A stretch of 64,000 nt of DNA from positions 107,696,001 to 107,760,000 of the forward strand of contig CM059431.1 of assembly GCA_030390025.1 (NCBI GenBank), given 5' to 3'. Position numbers and translations under genes: made by a program. Below the pieces are notes generated by a model. It was not told the DNA's origin, did not search any database, and was given only the letters and a program-made list of their open reading frames with translations. Shown here one piece after another: positions 1,626-59,986 of the stretch; position 1 is the stretch's first letter, and each line of letters starts with the position of its first letter. Source of the stretch: Squalus acanthias. Its lineage: Eukaryota.

Positions 1626-3932
1626 TAACCGGGCCAAGTGTTTGATTTGTATGTGGGAGAGCACTTTGGAGATAGTGACCACAATTCGGTAACTTTCACT
1701 ATTGCAATGGAGAGGGATAGGGCCATACGGCAGGGCAGGGTTTATAATTGGGGGAGGGGTAATTATGATGCGATTAGGCAAGAATTAGGGAGTATAAGAT
1801 GGGAACAGAAACTATCAGGGAAAGGCACAAACGAGAAGTGGAGCTTTTTCATGGAGCAATTACTGCGTGTCCTTGATAGGTATGTCCCTGTCAGGCAGGG
1901 AGGAAATGGCCGAGTGAGAGAACCATGGTTCACAAAAGAGGTTGAATGTCTAGTCAAGAGGAAAAAGGAAGCGTATGTAAGGATGAGAAAACAAGGTTCA
2001 GTTGGGTCGATTGAGGGGTACAAGGTAGCAAGGAATGAGCTAAAAAAAGAGCTTAGGAGAGCTAGGAGGGGGCATGAGAAGTCCTTGGTGGGTCGGATCA
2101 AGAAAAACCCCAAGGCTTTTTACTCTTATGTGAGAAATAAAAGAATGACCAGGGTGAGGGTAGGGCCGGTCAAGGACAGTAGTGGGAACTTATGCATGCA
2201 GTCAGAAGAGATAGGAGAGGTGATGAATGAATACTTTTCGTCAGTGTTCACCGAGGAGAGGGGCCATGTTCTTGAGGATGAGAGTGTGATAAAGGTGGAT
2301 AGGCTGGAGGTGGTAGATGTTCTGAGGGAAGATGTTTTAGCAATTTTGAAGAACCTGAGGGTCGATAAGTCCCCTGGGCCAGATGGGATATATCCTAGGA
2401 TTCTTTGGGAGGCAAGGGAGGAGATTGCAGAGCCTCTGGCTTTGATCTTTGGGTCCTCACTGTCCACGGGGATGGTGCCAGAGGACTGGAGAGTGGCGAA
2501 TGTTGTTCCTCTCTTCAAGAAAGGAAATAGGAATGACCCTGGTAATTATAGGCCGGTTAGTCTTACTTCGGTGGTTGGTAAGATAATGGAAAAGGTCCTG
2601 AGGGATAGGATTTATGACCATTTGGAAAGGGGCAACTTAATCAGGGATAGTCAACACGGATTCGTGAAGGGTAAGTCTTGCCTAACAAATTTGATTGAAT
2701 TCTTTGAGGAGGTAACTAAGTGTGTAGATGAAGGTAGAGCAGTTGATGTCGTATACATGGATTTTAGTAAGGCGTTTGATAAGGTTCCCCATGGTCGTCT
2801 CATGAAGAAAGTAAGGAGTTGTGGGATAGAGGGAAATTTGGCCGATTGGATAAGTAACTGGCTATCTCATAGAAGGCAGAGGGTGGTGGTGGATGGAACA
2901 TTTTCGGACTGGAGACCAGTTACCAGCGGTGTGCCACAGGGGTCGGTGCTGGGTCCTCTGCTGTTTGTGATTTTTATCAATGACTTGGAGGAGGGGACTG
3001 AAGGGTGGATCAGTAAATTTGCTGATGACACCAAGATTGGTGGAGTAGTGGATGAGGTGGAGGGCAGTTGTAGGCTGCAAAGAGACATTGATAGGATGCA
3101 GAGCTGGGCCGAAAAATGGCAGATGGAATTTAACCCTGATAAGTGCGAGGTGATTCATTTTGGTAGGGCAAATTTGAATAAGGATTACAGGGTCAACGGC
3201 AGGGTTCTGAGGAACGTGGAGGAGCAGAGGGATCTGGGGGTTCATATCCACAGATCTCTGAAGGTTGCCACTCAAGTGGATAGAGCAGTAAAGAAGGCCT
3301 ATGGTGTGTTGGCATTTATTAACAGAGGGTTTGAGTTTAAGAACCGTGAGGTTATGCTGCAACTGTACAGGACCTTGGTGAGACCACATTTGGAATATTG
3401 TGTGCAGTTCTGGTCACCTCACTATAGGAAGGACGTGGAAGCATTGGAAAGAGTGCAAAGGAGATTTACCAGGATGCTGCCTGGTTTGGGGGGGAGGTCT
3501 TATGAGGAAAGATTGAGGGAGTTGGGGCTTTTCTCTTTAGAGCGGAGGAGGATGAGAGGCGACTTAATAGAGGTTTATAAGATGATGAGGGGAATAGATA
3601 GAGTGGATGTTCAGAGACTATTTCCTCGGGTAGAGGCAGCTGTTACAAGGGGGCATAACTATAAGGTGCATGGGGGGAGATATAGAAGGGATGTCCGAGG
3701 TAGATTCTTTACTCAGAGAGTGGTTGGGGTGTGGAATGGACTGCCTGCTGTGATAGTGGAGTCGGACACTTTAGGAACTTTCAAGCGGTTATTGGATAAG
3801 CACATGGAGCACACCAGAGTGATAGGGAGTGTGATAGCTTGATCTTGGTCTCGGACAATGCTCGGCACAACATTGAGGGCCGAAGGGCCTGTAATGTGCT
3901 GTACTGTTCTATGTTCTATGTTCTATGTTCTA
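1626..3932 (+). mobile_element. CR1 LINE, 5'-truncated, young
   Basis: ORF2 followed by a short 3' UTR and a (TTCTATG)n tail at about 3907-3931. Confidence 0.95.
1638..3842 (+). CDS. CR1 ORF2 (end of endonuclease plus reverse transcriptase), 5'-truncated, no true start codon
   Basis: 734 open codons with SDH (endonuclease end), KSPGPDG, NYRPVSLTS, DFSKAFD, GVPQGSVLGP, KFADD and the CR1 C-terminal LERVQRRFT..FFTQRVV..WN motifs. Confidence 0.9.
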   Translation: MFDLYVGEHFGDSDHNSVTFTIAMERDRAIRQGRVYNWGRGNYDAIRQELGSIRWEQKLSGKGTNEKWSFFMEQLLRVLDRYVPVRQGGNGRVREPWFTKEVECLVKRKKEAYVRMRKQGSVGSIEGYKVARNELKKELRRARRGHEKSLVGRIKKNPKAFYSYVRNKRMTRVRVGPVKDSSGNLCMQSEEIGEVMNEYFSSVFTEERGHVLEDESVIKVDRLEVVDVLREDVLAILKNLRVDKSPGPDGIYPRILWEAREEIAEPLALIFGSSLSTGMVPEDWRVANVVPLFKKGNRNDPGNYRPVSLTSVVGKIMEKVLRDRIYDHLERGNLIRDSQHGFVKGKSCLTNLIEFFEEVTKCVDEGRAVDVVYMDFSKAFDKVPHGRLMKKVRSCGIEGNLADWISNWLSHRRQRVVVDGTFSDWRPVTSGVPQGSVLGPLLFVIFINDLEEGTEGWISKFADDTKIGGVVDEVEGSCRLQRDIDRMQSWAEKWQMEFNPDKCEVIHFGRANLNKDYRVNGRVLRNVEEQRDLGVHIHRSLKVATQVDRAVKKAYGVLAFINRGFEFKNREVMLQLYRTLVRPHLEYCVQFWSPHYRKDVEALERVQRRFTRMLPGLGGRSYEERLRELGLFSLERRRMRGDLIEVYKMMRGIDRVDVQRLFPRVEAAVTRGHNYKVHGGRYRRDVRGRFFTQRVVGVWNGLPAVIVESDTLGTFKRLLDKHMEHTRVIGSVIA

Positions 3933-10654: not shown

Positions 10655-11579
10655 AGTGTGTCCAAATATCTACTGCTAAACGTGGTCCACACCAAGGCTG
10701 CAATTTCACCAGCCGTGGTGAGTCCGGTGCCGCAGGAGTAGACAGCAGCCTCAAACCCTGCTCCTGTCTTCATCCCACATCCTCCAAGTGATTTTGCCCT
10801 GATTGGGCTTGTTAAGCCCGCCCTGCGAGGTTCCCGGCCAATTAAAAGGAAGCGGGTCTGATGACGTCATTTGATGGTTTCCTTAAAGGCACCATGTCCA
10901 CATTCATTTTGACAGTTCTGTTGTCAATGTTCTACAGTATTGAGGTGCTGCAAACACTGACAAGCACTGCACAAAAGTGCACGGCTGCACCCAGGCTCTC
11001 CCATGATTCTCTCCAAATGCTTTTGGAGAGAGTCACAGCACGCAGGGAGGTCCTCTTCCCTTCAAATGGGCAGAAGAGATCTCCCCAGGACACCAATGCA
11101 GCCTGGTTGCACCTTGTGCAAGAGGAAACAAGCAGGGATGTTGTCAGGAGGACCTGGCTGCAGTGGCGCAAACCTTTCAATGATCACAGTGGATCACGAA
11201 ACGTTACTGCAAAGCCACACTCAACCTCACCCTGCTGTGCCACTCATCACATCCCCATCACTCTGCCTTCCCTACCCTACTCCTGCACATCCTTACTCAC
11301 ACCAACTTACCTTGCACCTCCACCCATCCCTCTCTATCTATATTATCACTTCCCCATCTCACTAGCCTTCCCTCACACTCACCCTCATCCTAGTCCAATC
11401 ATACCAACTAACAACACACAAGGGTAGGCACTTGGGTGGTTTAGTCAATGTGTGTGTAAACTTTCTGTTAATGTGTTGTCAAGCATTAAAATCTTTATTT
11501 TCACTACTTTGCCTTCTTGGACCGATTTGTGTGCACCTTTGAAAGTGCCTCAGTGAGTTCCAGTGAATGGTGAGACTCC

Positions 11580-16479: not shown

Positions 16480-17004
16480 CAGAAGGGTATGAGCATAGTT
16501 GCTAAGTAAAAATAGAGGAAGAAATGTACATGACATTGATAAAGTAGTAATGCATGCTGTTCGGTGGTAATTGTTGCAGAAATCTCCTGGGCAGATTCCC
16601 ATCGAGCAGACGGAATATTACTATGAACAAGAAATGGTTGAAAAAAACGTAGCCAGTGCACAGGTGGAAGAAATAGATATTAGGAAATTACACAAAAAGA
16701 ACCCAAACGTAGTCAAGGCAGCCCCTTTAAAAAGAGGGGGAACGTTACAAATTTCCACAGCCAAGTACCAAGCTTTTAGCCCCTTAGAAAAACAAACAAT
16801 ATTGAAAGATTTGGGAAGTTGGGTCATATGGCAAAAGAATGTAGGGCCCCCAAACAAAACCGACCGGTATGTGCTAATTGCGCAAGACCAGGACTTTCAA
16901 CCGAGAGGTGTTGGACAAAAAAGGAAGAGCCAAACCAGACCGGGACCATTGATATGTATCAAAAGATCCTGCAGTATGTAAAGGAACAGGGTTGCGGCAA
17001 CTGA
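16480..17004 (+). pseudogene. gag: gag capsid-start and nucleocapsid remnant
   Basis: KYQAFSPLE (capsid-start-like) joined by a deletion to GKLGHMAKEC and CANCARPGLSTERC, i.e. two CCHC-type knuckles, both damaged. Confidence 0.75.
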
Positions 17005-17459
17005 CTAGCGGCGGCCCCCATCAAGAGGGAGAAGGAAGATCCCAGAGTCTATGTACCGGCACTGTTAGGGGGGCAGCAGTGCGATATGTTAGTAGACACG
17101 GGAGCTTCTGTATCCATTACCAATTTACCCATTCCCCTCATAAACAAAGGATAGACATAGTGGGGTTGGGAGGGGAGCATTTACATGCATTTAAAAGTGA
17201 GGTACAAGTATTGGAATTAGCGGGACGACTATTACCTGCACAATTTTATGTATGCCCAAACAGTGAGGGGAATATCTTAGGAATAGATTTGTTAAAAGAA
17301 TTTAATTTGTTAATAGATTCACGACAAGGAAAGTTAACCTGGGTACAGGGAGACGGGAACATAGTAAACTGGGGAAAACCACTTTGCCATTTGGCAACAG
17401 TAGGAAGTGCAAAACTCGTGGCCCGGGACTGGAAGGAGGAGAGGATGTGGGTCCTCTAA
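17005..17459 (+). pseudogene. pro: Retroviral aspartic protease, frameshifted
   Basis: DPRVYV..GGQQCDMLVDTGAS (D at 17095) in the gag frame, then IVGLGG and NILGIDLL in another frame. Confidence 0.85.
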
Positions 17460-17553
17460 AGGATAAGCTCCGAAGGAAAATAGAATCTTCAAGCAACAAA
17501 GCGGTTCGGTTGGCGATATAGCCTTTGGGACATTGTTAACATAAAGTGATAAG

Positions 17554-18715
17554 ATGAACGTGTTACGTAATATCATGTGTAGTTTGCTAGTTTGTATAAT
17601 CATAATATGTAGCCTCGGGAGGACTCAGGCTAGAGTACCCCCACGGGCCAAAAGAGGGTTACGGGTGAACACCTGTTTATATATGTCATACACATATGCC
17701 AAGAGAGTTGATGTTTCCAGCTGTTGGGTCTGCGCCCATGTCCTCACGGACTCGGAGGAAGGAGTCCCCCTACAACCAATCCCACTTAGTGATGATGAGA
17801 CGGTCAGTTGGATGTTTGGAGTTAGAGCAGGATGCACAAGTGTGGGCTGTTATGAAGCCAAGACAGACGGCAGAATTATAGCAAAGCTCCAACATCATGG
17901 GTACAACCCAGAATATTGTAATGGGTGGACACGGTATTCCTATCTACCACCGTTCCTGAGAACGAGGAGTAAGAAGGGACAAAGGGGGGGACTATGTCTC
18001 GCAAAGAGGGGACGACCGACAGATCCTATTGTGGGCTACAGTAACTGCACATATAACATTGCCTTGCCTGGTGAAACGGGTAGTGTGAAGCTCCCATCAC
18101 TAAACCGAAGCGGTGACTTCTCAGTACAATGGGACCCCGCAGAGGTAAATAAGTATACCTCCTACAACGGGACTCATTTCGTGTGCGGTCATAGGGCTTA
18201 TCCCTGGTTGCCCCGAGAATGGAGCGGGTAAATTGGCAAGGGAATCCATTAACCTGGCCTCTGTCTTGGAGCAGGTGGCCAACGATACAGCTGAAGCCCT
18301 AGTTAAGGTTAATGCTGAGATGGTAGCCCTCCGCACAGTAGCTCTACAAAATCGGATGGCCCTTGACTATGTGTTAGCGGAAAAAGGGGGAACCTGCGCA
18401 CTAATAGGTACAGAATGTTGTACCTATATACCAGATAACTCGGAAGCAATAACTAACTTGGCAGAACACATACAGGAAGAAGTAAAGAAATTAAAACAAC
18501 CTCCGGGATCCACCCTTTGGGGCTAGGCAACTGGATGGTTGGGATCACTCGGGACATCAGTAGTACAAGGATTGATTTTGTTCTTTGCTATAATATTAGT
18601 GATGTATGGTCTGGCCCTATTGTTAAAATGTTGTTGCGCTCAAATGTCACGGACTGCTGTAAGTGTCATAATGGTTAATCAAGTGACTCCCGGAGAGAGA
18701 GATATGTGGATATGA
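17554..18715 (+). pseudogene. env: Gamma-type env with SU/TM junction deleted
   Basis: Signal peptide, RAKR, CWVC (CXXC); TM part with ISD LQNRMALDYVLAEKGG and CX6CC; premature TAG at 18524-18526, then an in-frame membrane anchor ending at TGA 18713-18715. Confidence 0.9.
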
Positions 18716-22038: not shown

Positions 22039-22441
22039 TTAGAATTTTTTTTTTGTATTTATGAAGAAACTGACTACTGTACCCCAATATAACTAGCAAA
22101 TCGTTCTGCATATTTTTTAAATGTCATTTTCAGTCGTTTAAAATCGGGTTACTCACAGGTAGAGAATTGGCACTGGGATTAAAAATCCTGATTCTTTGGG
22201 ATAAACCCAACTGTATTAATCAAACTGCACCAAGTTACCTCTCTTAAATGTATCAAGAAATACTTTTTGAAGCAAATTTTTTGTTTAAATGATGTTTTAA
22301 CTCGCTGCCTGACTGTGCTGGTTTATGGCTGGGGTTGTGCTCGGTGAGATGCAAATGAGTTTGAACGGAAATTCCAGAATTTTTTTTTCTCAAAACGGGC
22401 GCAATTTTGGGTGTTTGTCTTGCACGATCTAAAAGAATAAA

Positions 22442-23193
22442 GGCCCAGAAATTCCCGTGTCCGGCTTGCCGCGGGGGTAAGGATTGCGCGCGCTCTTACC
22501 TACCGCGCCTGCCGTTGTGTTTTGGGCCCATGGGAACTTCGGGTTCTGGGCCTCTCCCAAGAGCTGGCGCGCAGTGCTTGCGTGTTCCAGGGGCGCAGTT
22601 AGTGCGATGCGACCCCTGGGATCACGTGGGCCATGGAGAGCCAATGGCAGCAGACCATCTTTCATTCATAGATTTGACAGGAGACCTGTCAAATCTGTGA
22701 ATTGAAATCGGCCCCAAAAGAACAGCTAAACTTAAAATAAATTTTTTAAAAACCATCACATTTATAAAATAACTATAGTTAAATAAATTAACCACTTTAA
22801 ACAAAAATTTAAATTTTTGAAAAAATCGAAATACTTTTTAAAAGTTATAAAAATAAACTTACCTTTCTTTAAAGTATCTAAAAAAGATAAACCTGTTGAA
22901 AACTTTTTTTAATTATACTTAATTAACCACTTACCTTGTTCAAAAGGGGTCTTACGCCTCCTTTTTATTAGCGTAGTATCTTCAATACTTACCCTCGCGT
23001 AGAAACCTGAAAAAAAATCTAAGTGTGCTGCATGCACGCAGCCTCTAGCGCGCACACGGTTCACCTAGGAACCGCCCCCTTCACCAGACCGGAAGTTCCG
23101 GTTTCCCGCGCATGCAGGAAACCGGCACTTCAGGAAGCAATACTGGTGAGTACACACAGTGTACTCACGCGGGAAGGGCCGAATTTTTGTGCC
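22442..23193 (+). mobile_element. Harbinger-type MITE, family B
   Basis: TIR GGCCCAGAAATT / AATTTTTGTGCC; TSD AAA; homologous to 27963-28723 and 43941-44703. Confidence 0.85.
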
Positions 23194-23686: not shown

Positions 23687-24041
23687 TAGTTCAGCAACTG
23701 ATTTTCAAATTCATGTACAAATTTCCCAAAGTTACCACTAAACCAAGTGGTGAAATTACTCTGCAACATCACATTGGCTAATCCAATGAATTCATAAAAG
23801 AAAAGCGACGAATGACACTATGACTTGATGTACGTAGGTCCATTGTATTCTGAAACAGTCCTCGGTAATGCCAACCCCACCGCCTCATAAATCAGAAGAC
23901 AAAAAATCATGAGATTTGGTAAGAAATCACGAGTTGCTTTTTTTTCCAAACATAAACCAATATAGATTGACAGTTCGTTCATAAATCTCATCAGTGGCTT
24001 TATTTAATCTCTAACAAGTCACAGCTCTTTGCAAAAACTAT

Positions 24042-24781
24042 GGGCCTGAAAATCCGATGGGCGGATGCCTCCGATCGGAAAAAAATCTACGCGCTTACCT
24101 GCTGGCTCTGTAGGTCCCGAGACATCCGCTCCTGGGCCTCTCCACTACGAAATGCGCAGAGGCCCAGGTATCCCAGGGGCGCAGGCGATTCACAAGCTCC
24201 CCTGGGATCACGTGGGCCATGGGGAACCAATCAAAGAAGGGAATCCCCCCTCATACTTTTGACAGGTCTCTACGCACGGATCTGTCAAAAGTATGAATGG
24301 GGATCACTTAAAAAACAAAGTTAAACATTAAATATATATTTTTAAAATCACATATTAGTTAAAATTGCATTAAATTAAATATTTTAAACAAAAAAATAAT
24401 TTTTTGAAAAAAGAATTAAAGTTTTTCACGGGGCTAAAAATAAACTTACCTTTTTTAAAAGTATTTTAAAATTCTAAATGAGTGAAAAAAAAAATTTTTT
24501 TTAAACTCTTATCCTGGTAAAAGCAGCCCTTACACAGGCTTTTACCAGGCGTAAGATTTTTAAAGGTTTTCGGCGGGCGGAGGTTGTGCAGAAAGCGGAA
24601 CTCTCCCCCCGCGGAGGCCCGTCTCCCGGGCAGGCGGAGGATCTGTCAAGAGAATTCTTCACAGATTGCAAGTGCCAGGTTTTAGCGCATGCGCTTTGCA
24701 TGCCTGAAACCGGCACTTGCACGGCCCCTATGGGCACATACGCAGCTCGTACGCACCCATAGAAGTCACAAAATCCGGCCC
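24042..24781 (+). mobile_element. Harbinger-type MITE, family B-related
   Basis: TIR GGGCCTGAAAAT / AAAATCCGGCCC; TSD TAT; same GGATCACGTGGGCC..CCAAT and TGACAG hairpin modules as family B. Confidence 0.8.
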
Positions 24782-25287
24782 TATATTACTGCATCTGAAA
24801 ATGCTTCACAAGAACCTTTTAAAAAATCCTACCCGTTATCACCAGCCCTCACCCGGTGCCCGACACAACCACCACGCAATGCAATCCCTGCAGCTGCCAA
24901 CCAAAGGTAAGTTTTGGGGGGGAAAAGATCCAAAACACCTTTCCATGGAGATAGGAGGCTCGATCACCCCCCACCCCGCCGTAGGCCGCTCCAAGCTCCT
25001 GGGACTTGCCTGAGGGCTGGTGCTGGCATTGATGTCTTCACTCGAGCAACCTGCCCGTGCAGGTGCGGCCAATGTCGCCGCTCGGCCCGAGTATGCAGAT
25101 GTGGCCCGAGGACCGATTTCTATCCATCCTCGGGCCCCTTGCTTCCCAGGCCCCCTCCCGTGTTCTAAAAAAAATTCGGGGACCCCCCTGAATCACAATG
25201 AGTATTTTTTTTCTGTATAACAATTAGTTATACAATTAAGCATATATATTTATTGTTACTTTTGTTTTACTGAATTAATGTAAGAGA

Positions 25288-25839
25288 ATGTAGATCTGGG
25301 CCACCTGCAAGGTCTTGTACTTGGACAGTTTCTGGCCGTTGTTGAAGGAAGGGATGACGTTCCTGAGCTGGTGGAAGGCATGGTTCAAGTCGTGCATCCT
25401 CCTCCTCGCCCTGGTGTTGGCGGGCAGCCTCCTCGGCTTCTGCACTCCGTTGGCTCGACAGCCCAGCTCCTCCAAAAAAAGACCCCATGCCCTTCAGTTT
25501 GCACAGCTCCCGCGCTTTGATCGGGCTCTTGCCCTGGCCGCGTCGGGTCCCAGCAGCAGCTGCTCGGGACCACCCGGGCGACAGGTAATCAGTGTGAGCC
25601 GAGCAGGTGCTGTGCAAAGGTGGGCTGCAAGCCAGGCTGGTGGGTGGGTGTCCAGCAGGGAGAGTGCAGCCACCGCCTGCGGGTTCTCCTGAGCTATCTG
25701 CTCAGGGTGATGATGATGATGCTGCTGATGATGCAGACACCTCCGAAGCTCTCCCGGCGCTGGTTGAATTCCATTCCGCAAATTTTCCAACTTTGGACCG
25801 GTCGCTCTGCTCGACCTCTCCCTCTCTCTCCCGGCTAAT
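25288..25839 (-). pseudogene. ATOH1: Atoh1 (Math1) bHLH pseudogene
   Basis: Three successive frames give [29 protein letters not shown] and [60 protein letters not shown], collinear with vertebrate ATOH1; at least two frameshifts; similarity stops after QIYI. Confidence 0.9.
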
Positions 25840-25899
25840 TATTTTTAACCGACTCACTTGCCCTCCCCAGAAAAGAATAAAATATCTCCCAATCCTAGG

Positions 25900-26300
25900 A
25901 GGAGATAGACTCCAGTCAGATGCGAAGAATTTTAAAGTACTTAAAACAGCCCAAGCTCTGAAAATGGCTCCAGTGATTTTCCCACCCGCCCCTCAAGTTT
26001 CAATCAAAAAAGAATTTACCGAGATAATCTTCAAGCCAGTGAACTCACCCATCATGTATTGCAAATGGCGTCTCAACAGTACGCACGCACAGCCTTCGTA
26101 TCTGAGACTATTCCAAACGTCTCAAATACAAAGGGGAGAAGGGGAGACTTCTGATGGGAAAACCAACTCGTGGGAGACTACTAATGGCACAAACCAACTT
26201 GCGGACCCCCGGGGTGGTGGGGGCCTCGGATCCCCGGCTGAGAACTCATGTGTCCCAGCAGTAGCCAATCACAGGAGGCCTGATGAAGATTAATGCAGCA
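25900..26300 (-). promoter_or_regulatory. Candidate promoter of the Atoh1 copy
   Basis: Non-repeat DNA directly upstream with a GC box (25985-25992), YY1-like AAATGGCG (26063-26070), CCAAT (26265-26269), and N-box/CSL-like CTCGTGGGAGA near 26168. Confidence 0.4.
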
Positions 26301-26417
26301 AATAGAATATCGTGAGCTTTCACATTTCCACTCGCAAGGTCGCGAGTTGGGGTATATTTTCAGTGAAAATCACGTGTCTCGCGATTAATTCGCGAGAGTT
26401 GGCAATGCTGAGTCCTT

Positions 26418-57254: not shown

Positions 57255-57407
57255 TTGGGGGAGAATTTCAGTTGGTTAGCGCCTCCCGTTAGCGTCTGGC
57301 GGGGGCGAGGCAAAACTAACGCCACACGCCAAATCCAGTCGCCCCTTAGCACCGCCGTTAACAGTTAACGCCTGGGGCTTTAGCACCAGGCAGATTTTGA
57401 CGTCAGT

Positions 57408-57878
57408 GCCCGCTATCCTGGCAGCAGTCACGATGCCTTCATCCTGCGCCAACCCGGTGTTCCAGCACTCTTCCAGCCGCCACATCAAGCTCGCAGCTGG
57501 TTGGTTGGAGACAAGGGCTATCTGCTCTCCACCTGGCTCATGACTCCTCTCCGCAACCCCAGCACTCCTGCCCAGCACTTATATAATGAGAGCCATGCCG
57601 CCGCCAGGAACATCATCGAGCAAACCATCGGAGTGCTCAAGCAACGGTTCCGCTGCCTTGACCACTCGGGAGGAGCCCTCCAGTACTCGTCGGAGCGGGA
57701 GTCCCATTTTGTCATGGTCTGCTGCATGCTCAACAACATGGCCATCATGAGGGCCCAGCCCTTGCCACAAGGGATTGCGGGACCACCTCAGGAGGAGGAA
57801 GAGGGAGAGGAGGAGGAGGACGAGGACAAGGAGGAAGAGGAAGTTGAGGAGGAGGAGGAGGAGGAGGAACAGGAGTGA
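57408..57878 (+). pseudogene. Harbinger (HARBI1-like) DDE transposase, C-terminal half
   Basis: [55 protein letters not shown] with an acidic tail; the N-terminal half with the first catalytic Asp is missing. Confidence 0.92.
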
Positions 57879-58153
57879 GGGAGGAGGCTGCCACTCAATC
57901 GGCCTTCTGGAAGGGCGGTCTGTGATCACCTCATCAGACTGCGGTTCCAGTAACTTCAACCCCAGATCCCCGTTGCTCACCACATCCCTGTCATTCCATC
58001 CCTGTCGCAGGCCATATCGCAGCACAAAGCTGAAACTAGAGAAACCGCAAAATCATCCAAAGCCATTTAATAAATTTATCAATAATCAGTGAACATATAT
58101 TTACAACAACAATATTAGCTCATCATCTTTGTGCAGTCCCTTAGTGCCTCTCG

Positions 58154-59986
58154 TTACTGTACCTTTGCCTCCTCTAGTGCTCCTACGAATTGTTGGCCCA
58201 GTGGCTGCAGAACAGCTGGTGGAAGGCTGCTGATTGTCATTTGGGAGACTTCAGATGGCCTTGCAGGACGCCCTCGACCAGCTCTGGGCCTGGAAGGCCC
58301 GGCTGTAGACTGCACCACCTCAGCATGGGCGGCAGCAGTCTGGGCTGGCTGGATGAGAGGCAGCGACAAGGGCAATGGCGGAGTGGCAGTGGTGGGAGCA
58401 GGAATGCTGTCATCCTGAGAGAGGACAGCAGGTTCGTGCTCCACTGACCCACTGCCACTCCCCCAGGGCAGCACCTCAGCATCACTACCAATCTGTTGGA
58501 GCACAGATTGCTAGCCTACCGCAACACCGTGAAAGCCCCGGTCGACAAAGGTATTAATGACAGCAGCAGTCAGAGCTTGCATGGCATCAAGCTGAGACTG
58601 CATGGGAGGAGTCTGAGATTGGATGCTACTAAGCATAGACTGCATTACAGCACTAATACGTTGCGTGGCTTCCACCTGTGCTGCAATGGAAGCTGCAACA
58701 TCACCCATCACGCGGCATGAGGTCTAGGTCGCCAAGGTCTCTCTGGGAGTCCACCATGCTTTGCAGACTGCAAATGATGGGCTCTATGGTGTGCACAGAG
58801 CCTTGTGCAATGTTGGAGGCAGATTCCTCCACGCTCCTTACCATTGCCGAGTGGCTCTCAGGCACCCTTGCCATTGGACCTATTATCTCCGTGTGCATGC
58901 CCATCATCCTTCTTCTAAAGGCCTCCCCATCGAGGTCCTCATCTGAGTCCTGTGCAGCAGAACTCGCGCGCAAACTCGCCCTCTGGGGAGCTGACTCCCG
59001 AGCTACCCTTTCCCCCTGGCCTTGCTGCAGACCGCTCGTCCCCGGTGCATCACCCTGTGCGGATCCCGCTACTTTACTAGCCTCTAAAGAATGTGTAGTG
59101 CCAGTATCTGAGCTGGTGCCTGCGGGTGAGACATGCAGTGACGTAGTGTGCTCTTCGTCCTCTTCTCCCGCCTTGCTCTCTATGGTACCCTCAGGGACAG
59201 GCTGCTCAGGTGCTTGCTCATTATCTGAAAGCATAAAGGCACAGGAGTTGGGTTAAGGTGAGGGGAGGGGGGCAGGAAGGGAGAAATGTATGCATACCGC
59301 ATGATTAGCTGGAAAGTGCAAAATGCTTGTGGGGTGAGGGGGAAGTGGGATGTGAGAAGAAGGAGTAGGGATGAACATACCGTTGTTGTCCCCAAGGGGG
59401 TCAACATCGCCGGTGGCCACGGCACTCACCACCTGGCGCCGAATAATCTGCAGCACAGTGGTTGGATGTTGGCTTGTCCCCTGCCTGTGCGCTCCTGCTC
59501 CCTCCTGTGGTGAGCCACCTTGGCCTGCAAAAGAGAGGAAAGTGTGTGAGTGAGTGTGGAGCAATGTGTTCGGGAGATGTGCCTTTCATAGTTGAATAGC
59601 TGTCATTGTGTGCAAGGTGTGAGATGTGGGTGTGAGTGTTGGTAGGTGGAGATTGTTGGTGGGTGAGTGCTGGGGGTGTGGTGCTTTGTGCAGTGTGTGC
59701 AGACTGAGGTTCAGACGGTAGTATGTAGCAGTTGTTGAAGCATTGTCTCACCCTGACCACCCGACTGAGGTCGTTAAATTTCTTCCTGCACTGTGTGAGG
59801 AACAACAGTGCTGCCCGACACCTGCTGGGCTACCTCGCTCCACATGGCGCGGAAGACTTGCGGCGAAGGCCTCCTGCCACTTGTCGGGTAGAGCACTGCC
59901 CTCCGTCTCTCCACAGCGAGGACCAATGCCTCCAATGTTTGGTCGCTGAATCTGCGAGCTCTCTCCCTGGGTCGTCGATCTGCCAT
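58154..59986 (-). pseudogene. Harbinger Myb/SANT-like (trihelix) partner gene, 3 exons, frameshifted
   Basis: Exon 1 RARRFSDQTLEALV..RRAVLYP..W.EVA..QCRKKFNDL with donor GTGAG near 59751; exon 2 from 59524 (AKVAHHRREQERTG) to a GTATGT donor near 59380; exon 3 after TTTCAG near 59224. Confidence 0.85.

Follow-up and report, generated by a model that had tools for sequence, protein, structure and literature searches.

Transposons with terminal inverted repeats (TIRs) that hold 100-5000 bp of non-transposon sequence between both termini of one element, taken from a unique donor whose flanks are free of the element, are known as Pack-TIRs. A survey of 100 animal genomes reported 370 Pack-TIRs, among which four families were multicopy, and only cases that were 90% or more identical to the donor were retained (Tan et al. 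2021, PMC8277862); by these figures, gene capture by DNA transposons has rarely given rise to multicopy families in the surveyed animals. Two of the described families come closest to the case presented here. Pack-hAT-N8_XT of Xenopus tropicalis is a non-autonomous TIR element that carries 291 bp of the CAPSL 5' UTR from a distant donor free of the element, and its three copies were re-transposed to other chromosomes with distinct target duplications (PMC8277862). In Drosophila melanogaster, Ssk-FB4 is a non-autonomous TIR element that captured a protein-coding gene and occurs in multiple copies; it is young, includes nearly the whole gene and is positively selected (PMC8277862).

Here, we studied a window (the whole 64,000-nucleotide stretch of Squalus acanthias DNA presented above, on contig C7 of a 3.7-Gb assembly) in which a sequence resembling the developmental regulator ATOH1 had been predicted to be a pseudogenised gene copy. 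The sequence instead lies between the two termini of one non-autonomous TIR element, which has carried the same 455-bp host fragment to other chromosomes with distinct duplications, and whose donor, the intact ATOH1 gene of the host, is distant and free of the element. In these respects it resembles Pack-hAT-N8_XT; it differs in having six copies rather than three, in a coding cargo that includes most of a bHLH domain, in a 6-bp duplication, in its chondrichthyan host and in being far older, the copies being 79-83% identical to the donor and their majority sequence 85%. In contrast to Ssk-FB4, the cargo is partial, ancient and neutral. With identical junctions at six loci, the element joins a known but rare class, the multicopy Pack-TIRs. 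Its identity to the donor falls below the 90% filter, which is operational, aimed at young cases and not part of the concept; this is thus an old case that the pipeline of Tan et al. (2021) would miss. The word "shark" does not occur in the main text of that survey, and we found no report of this element in the literature on atoh1 pseudogenes in sharks, on Pack-TIRs or on chondrichthyan transposon captures, although the survey supplements may hold chondrichthyan cases. The best reading, to which we assign a probability of about 0.68, is that of an ancient, neutrally decaying multicopy Pack-TIR that preserves an ancestral shark ATOH1 sequence. Such captures would then stay readable for a very long time in a shark genome, and the core of a master regulator can be taken while the copies merely decay.

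The transposon and its ATOH1 fragment

The descent of the sequence from ATOH1, and not from ATOH7, is confirmed. A profile search gives a Pfam HLH match (E 2e-15) at 25278-25490 of the minus strand, and 25702-25288 aligns collinearly with the intact ATOH1 gene on contig C2 at 75%, both within the bHLH domain and outside it. An ATOH7-like gene on C14, which is a further intact relative, was tried as the source and rejected, with only 10 of 32 N-terminal residues in agreement and no collinear match.

The outer parts of the supposed gene have a different origin. What had been read as a decayed start (M-S-R at 25839) is not one: similarity to the real gene stops at 25742, shark ATOH1 proteins start with MSQ, and the stretch around 25839 is transposon arm, which also occurs in copies without ATOH1. 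The upstream promoter motifs fall in the same arm, which does not resemble the 1.4 kb that precede the real gene; a promoter scan with a bacterial model, which does not apply to vertebrate DNA, gave chance levels. A DNA-level origin, as opposed to retrocopying, still appears right, but the promoter-motif argument that had been offered for it fails because the upstream DNA is transposon. At the other limit, ATOH1 similarity breaks off within helix 2, and it does so at an identical base in each of the four copies that reach that far. The cargo fragment thus has neither a start codon nor a complete helix 2 (Table 1), and the 3' half of ATOH1 was never present in it.

Table 1. The element, its cargo and the lesions of the cargo, in window coordinates
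Feature	Coordinates	Strand	Remarks
Whole non-autonomous TIR DNA transposon, hAT6-like	23863..26410	-	2548 bp with nested insert, 1808 bp without
Left target-site duplication AGGACT	26411..26416	-	exact, 6 bp
Right target-site duplication AGGACT	23857..23862	-	exact, 6 bp
Left TIR, 13-bp core	26398..26410	-	1 mismatch to family motif CAGTATTGCCAAC
Right TIR	23863..23875	+	2 mismatches to motif, one at the second terminal base
Left arm, not ATOH1-derived	25743..26410	-	holds the claimed promoter and decayed start
Captured ATOH1 coding fragment	25288..25742	-	codons 19-171 of the intact gene, 455 bp
Right arm, inner part	24782..25287	-	dispersed homology
Nested insertion, later	24042..24781	.	about 740 bp, GGGCC...GGCCC ends, 3-bp ATA duplication
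Right arm, terminal part	23863..24041	-	dispersed homology
Residual 40-codon ATG frame	25275..25397	-	predicted; HLH without basic region, helix 2 cut
Indel +2	25624-5		vs majority sequence
Indel +1	near 25568		vs majority sequence
Indel -28	after 25538		vs majority sequence
Indel +7	25477-83		vs majority sequence
Indel -24	after 25455		vs majority sequence

The limits of the element were set by its homology with dispersed copies, which starts sharply at 26410 and stops at 23863-23865. By count, matches to the end motif are not above chance (two in 64 kb, with a shuffle mean of 1.84), and the TIRs are not among the 25 longest pairs in an inverted-repeat scan of the window; we accept them because they lie at the homology boundaries, are inverted and have an exact duplication just outside. 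The right arm is interrupted by an insertion that, by its hallmarks, we take to be a Harbinger-type MITE; there are contigs joining 24037 to 24781, and the summed depth over the insert is very high. Capture by a Helitron was considered when the right end seemed to be at 24781, and was dropped since the arm resumes at 24041 behind the nested insert. Helitrons have 5' TC and 3' CTRR ends and make no target duplication, whereas this element has inverted ends and 6-bp duplications.

Genome searches with the left arm, the inner part of the right arm and its terminal part returned 489, 1093 and 1145 candidates, which are not copy numbers; 40 candidates were scored in each case, yielding 44 matches, 49 matches and, besides the self match, 40 matches at 86-89%. 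These results point to a family size between hundreds and roughly a thousand members. Eight elements have both ends known, and five of them carry an exact 6-bp duplication (the window element, L058, L060, L073 and the cargo copy on C13); the other three, among them the cargo copy on C3698, have no exact duplication. The TIRs of hAT6 elements are short, imperfect and begin with CAG, and so do those observed here. The 6-bp duplication is likewise that of hAT6, the hAT families with 6-bp target duplications instead of the usual 8 (Kapitonov and Jurka 2007, as cited in PMC12730594). Duplications of 6 bp are also made by IS3EU elements, with TIRs over 30 bp (PMC12730594), as compared with a 13-bp TIR core in this element. 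A search with PF05699 produced 150 hAT-domain matches from 639 candidates, and none of the six best loci, checked for the arms or ends, is an autonomous partner; for this reason the family is named hAT6-like only. In contrast to hAT6 itself, which uses a hAT transposase of the Blackjack-related lineage, encoded by the element or by an autonomous partner with matching ends, no transposase is seen here, and the hAT placement would follow from signature, that is, from duplication length and end motif.

Five indels, four of which shift the frame, separate the window copy from the majority sequence of the six, and the original prediction of a dead sequence was right in this. It had named two of the five, near 25600 and at the A7 run (25474-25480); both are real, and the A7 run is part of a 7-bp insertion. 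The basic region is also altered, as claimed, with an E-to-A change at 25408. Contigs assembled from two DNA runs, belonging to two studies, span 25225-26169 and 25229-26169, and each differs from the window by 10 letters and one gap, so that at least four of the five indels and the 3' junction are common to the reads; one of the two runs may be the source of the assembly itself. Assembly error as the cause of the lesions was ruled out by these contigs.

The intact gene and six cargo loci

The assembly contains one full-length ATOH1, a single open frame of 300 codons on contig C2 (L004:1428-2330), which lies 8 Mb from the end of this 216-Mb contig and was the only full-length match in both DNA and protein searches. 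Its best hits are proteins from elasmobranchs that bear the name atonal homolog 1a. Ionotropic glutamate-receptor (Lig_chan) exons are found 200-240 kb upstream on the same strand, which we take to be the GRID2-ATOH1 arrangement. Such exons adjoin the C2 gene and its C3 paralogue, and none of the 31 Lig_chan matches is near a cargo copy. The element arm shows no similarity in the 1.4 kb 5' and the 1.1 kb 3' of the C2 gene. Expression of atoh1 has been described in ampullae (PMC11979771).

Two other intact atoh1-like genes, on C3 (L023, C3:136969440-136970234) and C23 (L026, C23:906881-907159), lie about 100 kb and about 750 kb, respectively, from glutamate-receptor exons and are probably old whole-genome-duplication paralogues. 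At C1:123666195 and C19:13196908, two Lig_chan matches each fall in a 380-codon stop-free frame, unlike the other receptors, which match exon by exon; these two are possibly intron-poor or retrocopied genes.

A DNA search with the intact gene gave 11 matches, comprising the gene, seven at six cargo loci (two on C7 and one each on C3, C5, C13 and C3698) and three other bHLH genes. When Heptranchias ATOH1 served as a protein query, 47 matches were obtained, among which there was no extra cargo locus and no remnant with the 3' half. The left junction is identical in all six copies in the alignment, and likewise in the sequences of four sister copies; the right junction is identical in all four copies that retain it. 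Sister elements continue with other sequence at the left junction (L053, L054, L059 and L062) and at the right junction (L053, L054, L063, L068 and L074). Overlap at the junctions is at most one base, with no positive sign of template switching. Both ends are known for three cargo copies, two of which have distinct exact duplications (AGGACT in the window and TACTTT on C13); the right ends of the C7a and C3 copies were not found within the 3-4 kb examined. In a left-arm tree of 20 rows, the six cargo copies group together, plus L055 (SH-aLRT 89), and the cargo tree is star-like, with copies 82-88% alike. Shared junctions, grouping of the arms and a star-like cargo together point to one capture, after which the loaded element transposed in a burst. 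The majority sequence, which draws on 2-6 copies per column and may be biased by CpG decay, is an open ATOH1 frame, suggesting that amplification came soon after capture.

It could be supposed that a segmental duplicate or retrocopy of ATOH1 decayed in place and that transposon pieces flank it by chance, particularly because the C2 gene is one open frame and the donor stretch intronless, so that an intron test cannot exclude retrocopying. However, two junctions and the arms are identical at six unlinked loci, the target duplication is outside the element and not around the cargo, and the cargo has no poly(A), no 3' end and no ATOH1 flanks. We give this supposition almost no credence, and consider the transposon-cargo structure close to certain. 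Under separate consideration, a processed pseudogene was rejected for want of a 3' end with poly(A) and of a duplication directly around the copy, and an ATOH1 paralogue or segmental duplicate, as originally proposed, for want of a start codon, 3' half, homologous flanks or GRID-type neighbour. What had been called a lost paralogue is start-less internal cargo of a TIR transposon present at six loci. These loci should not be scored as atoh1 paralogues or losses, and probes or primers designed on the 5' half of ATOH1 are best avoided.

The capture may have begun with a double-strand gap in one element, after excision or at a stalled fork. Repair of the gap would have switched template to the ATOH1 locus, copied about 460-490 bp and switched back, and the loaded element would then have been mobilised in trans by a hAT6-type transposase, with five or more further insertions within a short period. 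The window copy would now be debris that no longer moves and that a MITE has since entered.

None of the copies is free of frameshifts. Measured against the majority sequence, pooled pN is 0.077 and pS 0.102, and the bHLH part of five copies has 27 replaced versus 5 silent codons. By these measures, the copies are evolving neutrally, and the captured piece would have been functionless ever since it was acquired.

Id proteins (class V HLH) lack a basic domain and sequester E proteins (PMC8657788), and a speculative Id-like product had been proposed for 25275-25475. One point speaks for that proposal: the residual 40-codon frame is the only in-frame ATG product of the window copy, scores as HLH (Pfam positions 13-50 of 53) and, like Id proteins, has no basic region. 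The last three residues of the frame and its stop come from the transposon arm, in which AATAAA follows, and the window copy is the only one with an HLH free of indel or stop. On these grounds the copy might act as an Id-like inhibitor or a regulatory RNA, the arm being transcribed and a 40-residue HLH peptide binding E proteins. However, helix 2, which is complete in Id proteins, ends here about seven residues early, with His at the conserved leucine position; several ATGs lie upstream, one with an overlapping out-of-frame ORF; the window bHLH has 7 replacements and 0 silent changes; five sister copies lost or broke the HLH part; and there is no constraint in any copy. An Id-like role for the predicted product is unlikely because the copies evolve neutrally, and the inhibitor as just described seems to us very improbable.

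In the C3698 copy (L017:1310-2601), the left junction has expanded into a 61-bp minisatellite with 21 copies that are 98% alike. Its unit consists of transposon arm and the first ATOH1 codons, and it opens a frame of 317 codons that contains no stop and continues into the basic region. Sister subfamilies (L058, L060, L053 and L073) have different interiors, one of which is GC-rich and contains an exon-like 52-bp stretch between splice-like signals, while in another a piece resembling a tRNA-SINE immediately precedes the right junction. These interiors may be further captured host DNA. The majority sequences of two of them contain no clean long frame; a 62-residue frame in L058 had no protein relative (weak evidence, with 30 candidates and none scored), and a DNA search with the L058 interior gave 61 matches and no obvious donor.

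Age and source of the captured sequence

Before the bHLH domain, the majority sequence of the cargo agrees with ATOH1 of Heptranchias at 105 of 116 residues (91%), of Heterodontus at 93/107, of Scyliorhinus at 91/106, of Cetorhinus at 89/104 and of the host at 77 of 103 (75%). It is without the changes common to host and sawshark ATOH1, and shares with Heptranchias the Asp and Val states around the DADF and VRC stretch. Host ATOH1 groups with that of Pristiophorus japonicus (SH-aLRT 99, C-terminal half), as fits a squalomorph host, and in the free protein tree the cargo is not joined to the host lineage. Cargo and host as a clade by themselves are rejected (AU p=0.03); not rejected are cargo with host and Pristiophorus (p=0.105), cargo with host, Pristiophorus and Heptranchias (p=0.08), and cargo with Heptranchias (p=0.33, at a cost of 0.26 log-likelihood units). 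The trees leave aside the 100-odd other non-shark hits and extra cluster members, and the trees behind these clade tests also leave aside three host paralogues and four bony fishes that were used in an N-terminal tree.

Most order-level splits among sharks have been placed in the Early-Middle Jurassic (bioRxiv 10.64898/2026.02.13.705779). Because the cargo resembles the ancestral sequence, without the changes of host and sawshark, the capture most likely took place in an ancestor before the host/sawshark split, in the Jurassic or earlier; capture after that split is rejected (p=0.03). If the capture was Jurassic, neutral change would amount to about 0.4 per site per billion years, a rate that is slow but in line with sharks generally. 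Contigs under two other organism labels differ from the window copy by 5 of 259 letters (98%) and 49 of about 850 (94%), compared with 84-87% identity for the sister copies in this assembly; these contigs, which contain no flank, are probably orthologous to the window copy.

Branch lengths from the cargo ancestor, measured over the third positions of 123 conserved codons, are 0.165 for the host and 0.075 for the copies; their ratio is 2.2 (bootstrap 1.2-3.8) and becomes 4.2 at 54 fourfold sites. Vertical capture at equal rates does not predict this twofold silent-site excess of the host. The simplest account would combine capture before the split with later acceleration of the host gene, which would since then have evolved faster than the dead copies. 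Acceleration is suggested by a more than tenfold spread of ATOH1 rates among sharks (end branches 0.017-0.4), by the GC lean of the host (silent differences AT-to-GC 18 versus 8, with 4 of the 18 in CpG context) and by the position of the gene near a contig end. Vertical ancient capture is what we consider likely.

The excess could also come from a foreign donor, if a hexanchiform-like shark was the site of capture and the element entered host ancestors by horizontal transfer or introgression and amplified there. The closeness of the cargo to Heptranchias, their common Asp and Val states and the small cost of joining them would be expected of such an origin, and DNA transposons do move between fishes. 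If true, it would explain both the 91% versus 75% likeness and the silent-site excess, and would constitute transposon-borne transfer of a fragment of a developmental master gene between vertebrates. However, Heterodontus, Cetorhinus and Scyliorhinus are nearly as close to the cargo (86-87%), and the likeness may therefore be the ancestral state. Further, the arms of the cargo copies fall within a set of sister elements that belong to the host and are of similar age, the grouping with host and Pristiophorus stands unrejected, and ATOH1 has accelerated independently in several shark lineages. We regard a foreign donor as unlikely.

A lost donor within the host lineage would be a second ATOH1 of ancestral type that was kept until capture and then lost, and this hidden paralogy is the surviving part of the "lost paralogue" in the original prediction. 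It accounts for the silent-site excess, and can draw on the N-terminal gene tree, in which host, sawshark and batoids come together (84-92 bootstrap, unstarred), in conflict with the usual species tree. Yet no remnant with a start or the 3' half occurs among the 11 DNA or 47 protein matches, no listed species has both sequence types, and the host-batoid group is not recovered in the C-terminal tree; where the shark and ray tree should be rooted has itself not been settled (bioRxiv 10.64898/2026.02.13.705779). We find a lost donor quite improbable. A short deletion before the KSP motif is common to host, sawshark and batoid ATOH1 and absent in hexanchiform, galeomorph and chimaera proteins; together with the N-terminal grouping, it could reflect convergence, lineage sorting or hidden paralogy.

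With vertical capture before the split as the preferred reading, the six copies represent a fossil of ancestral shark ATOH1, and allow neutral and genic rates to be compared from one starting point.

Other elements in the window

No host gene was recognised within the 64-kb window. A LINE reverse-transcriptase frame of 737 codons occupies 1629-3842, a Myb/SANT piece lies at 10846-11427, and 16953-18526 contains endogenous-retrovirus fragments that include an envelope match (PF00429). A DDE_Tnp_4 piece of Harbinger type is located at 57384-59256. At 22437-23189, a very abundant MITE-like insert with GGGCC ends is related to the insertion nested in the ATOH1-bearing element.
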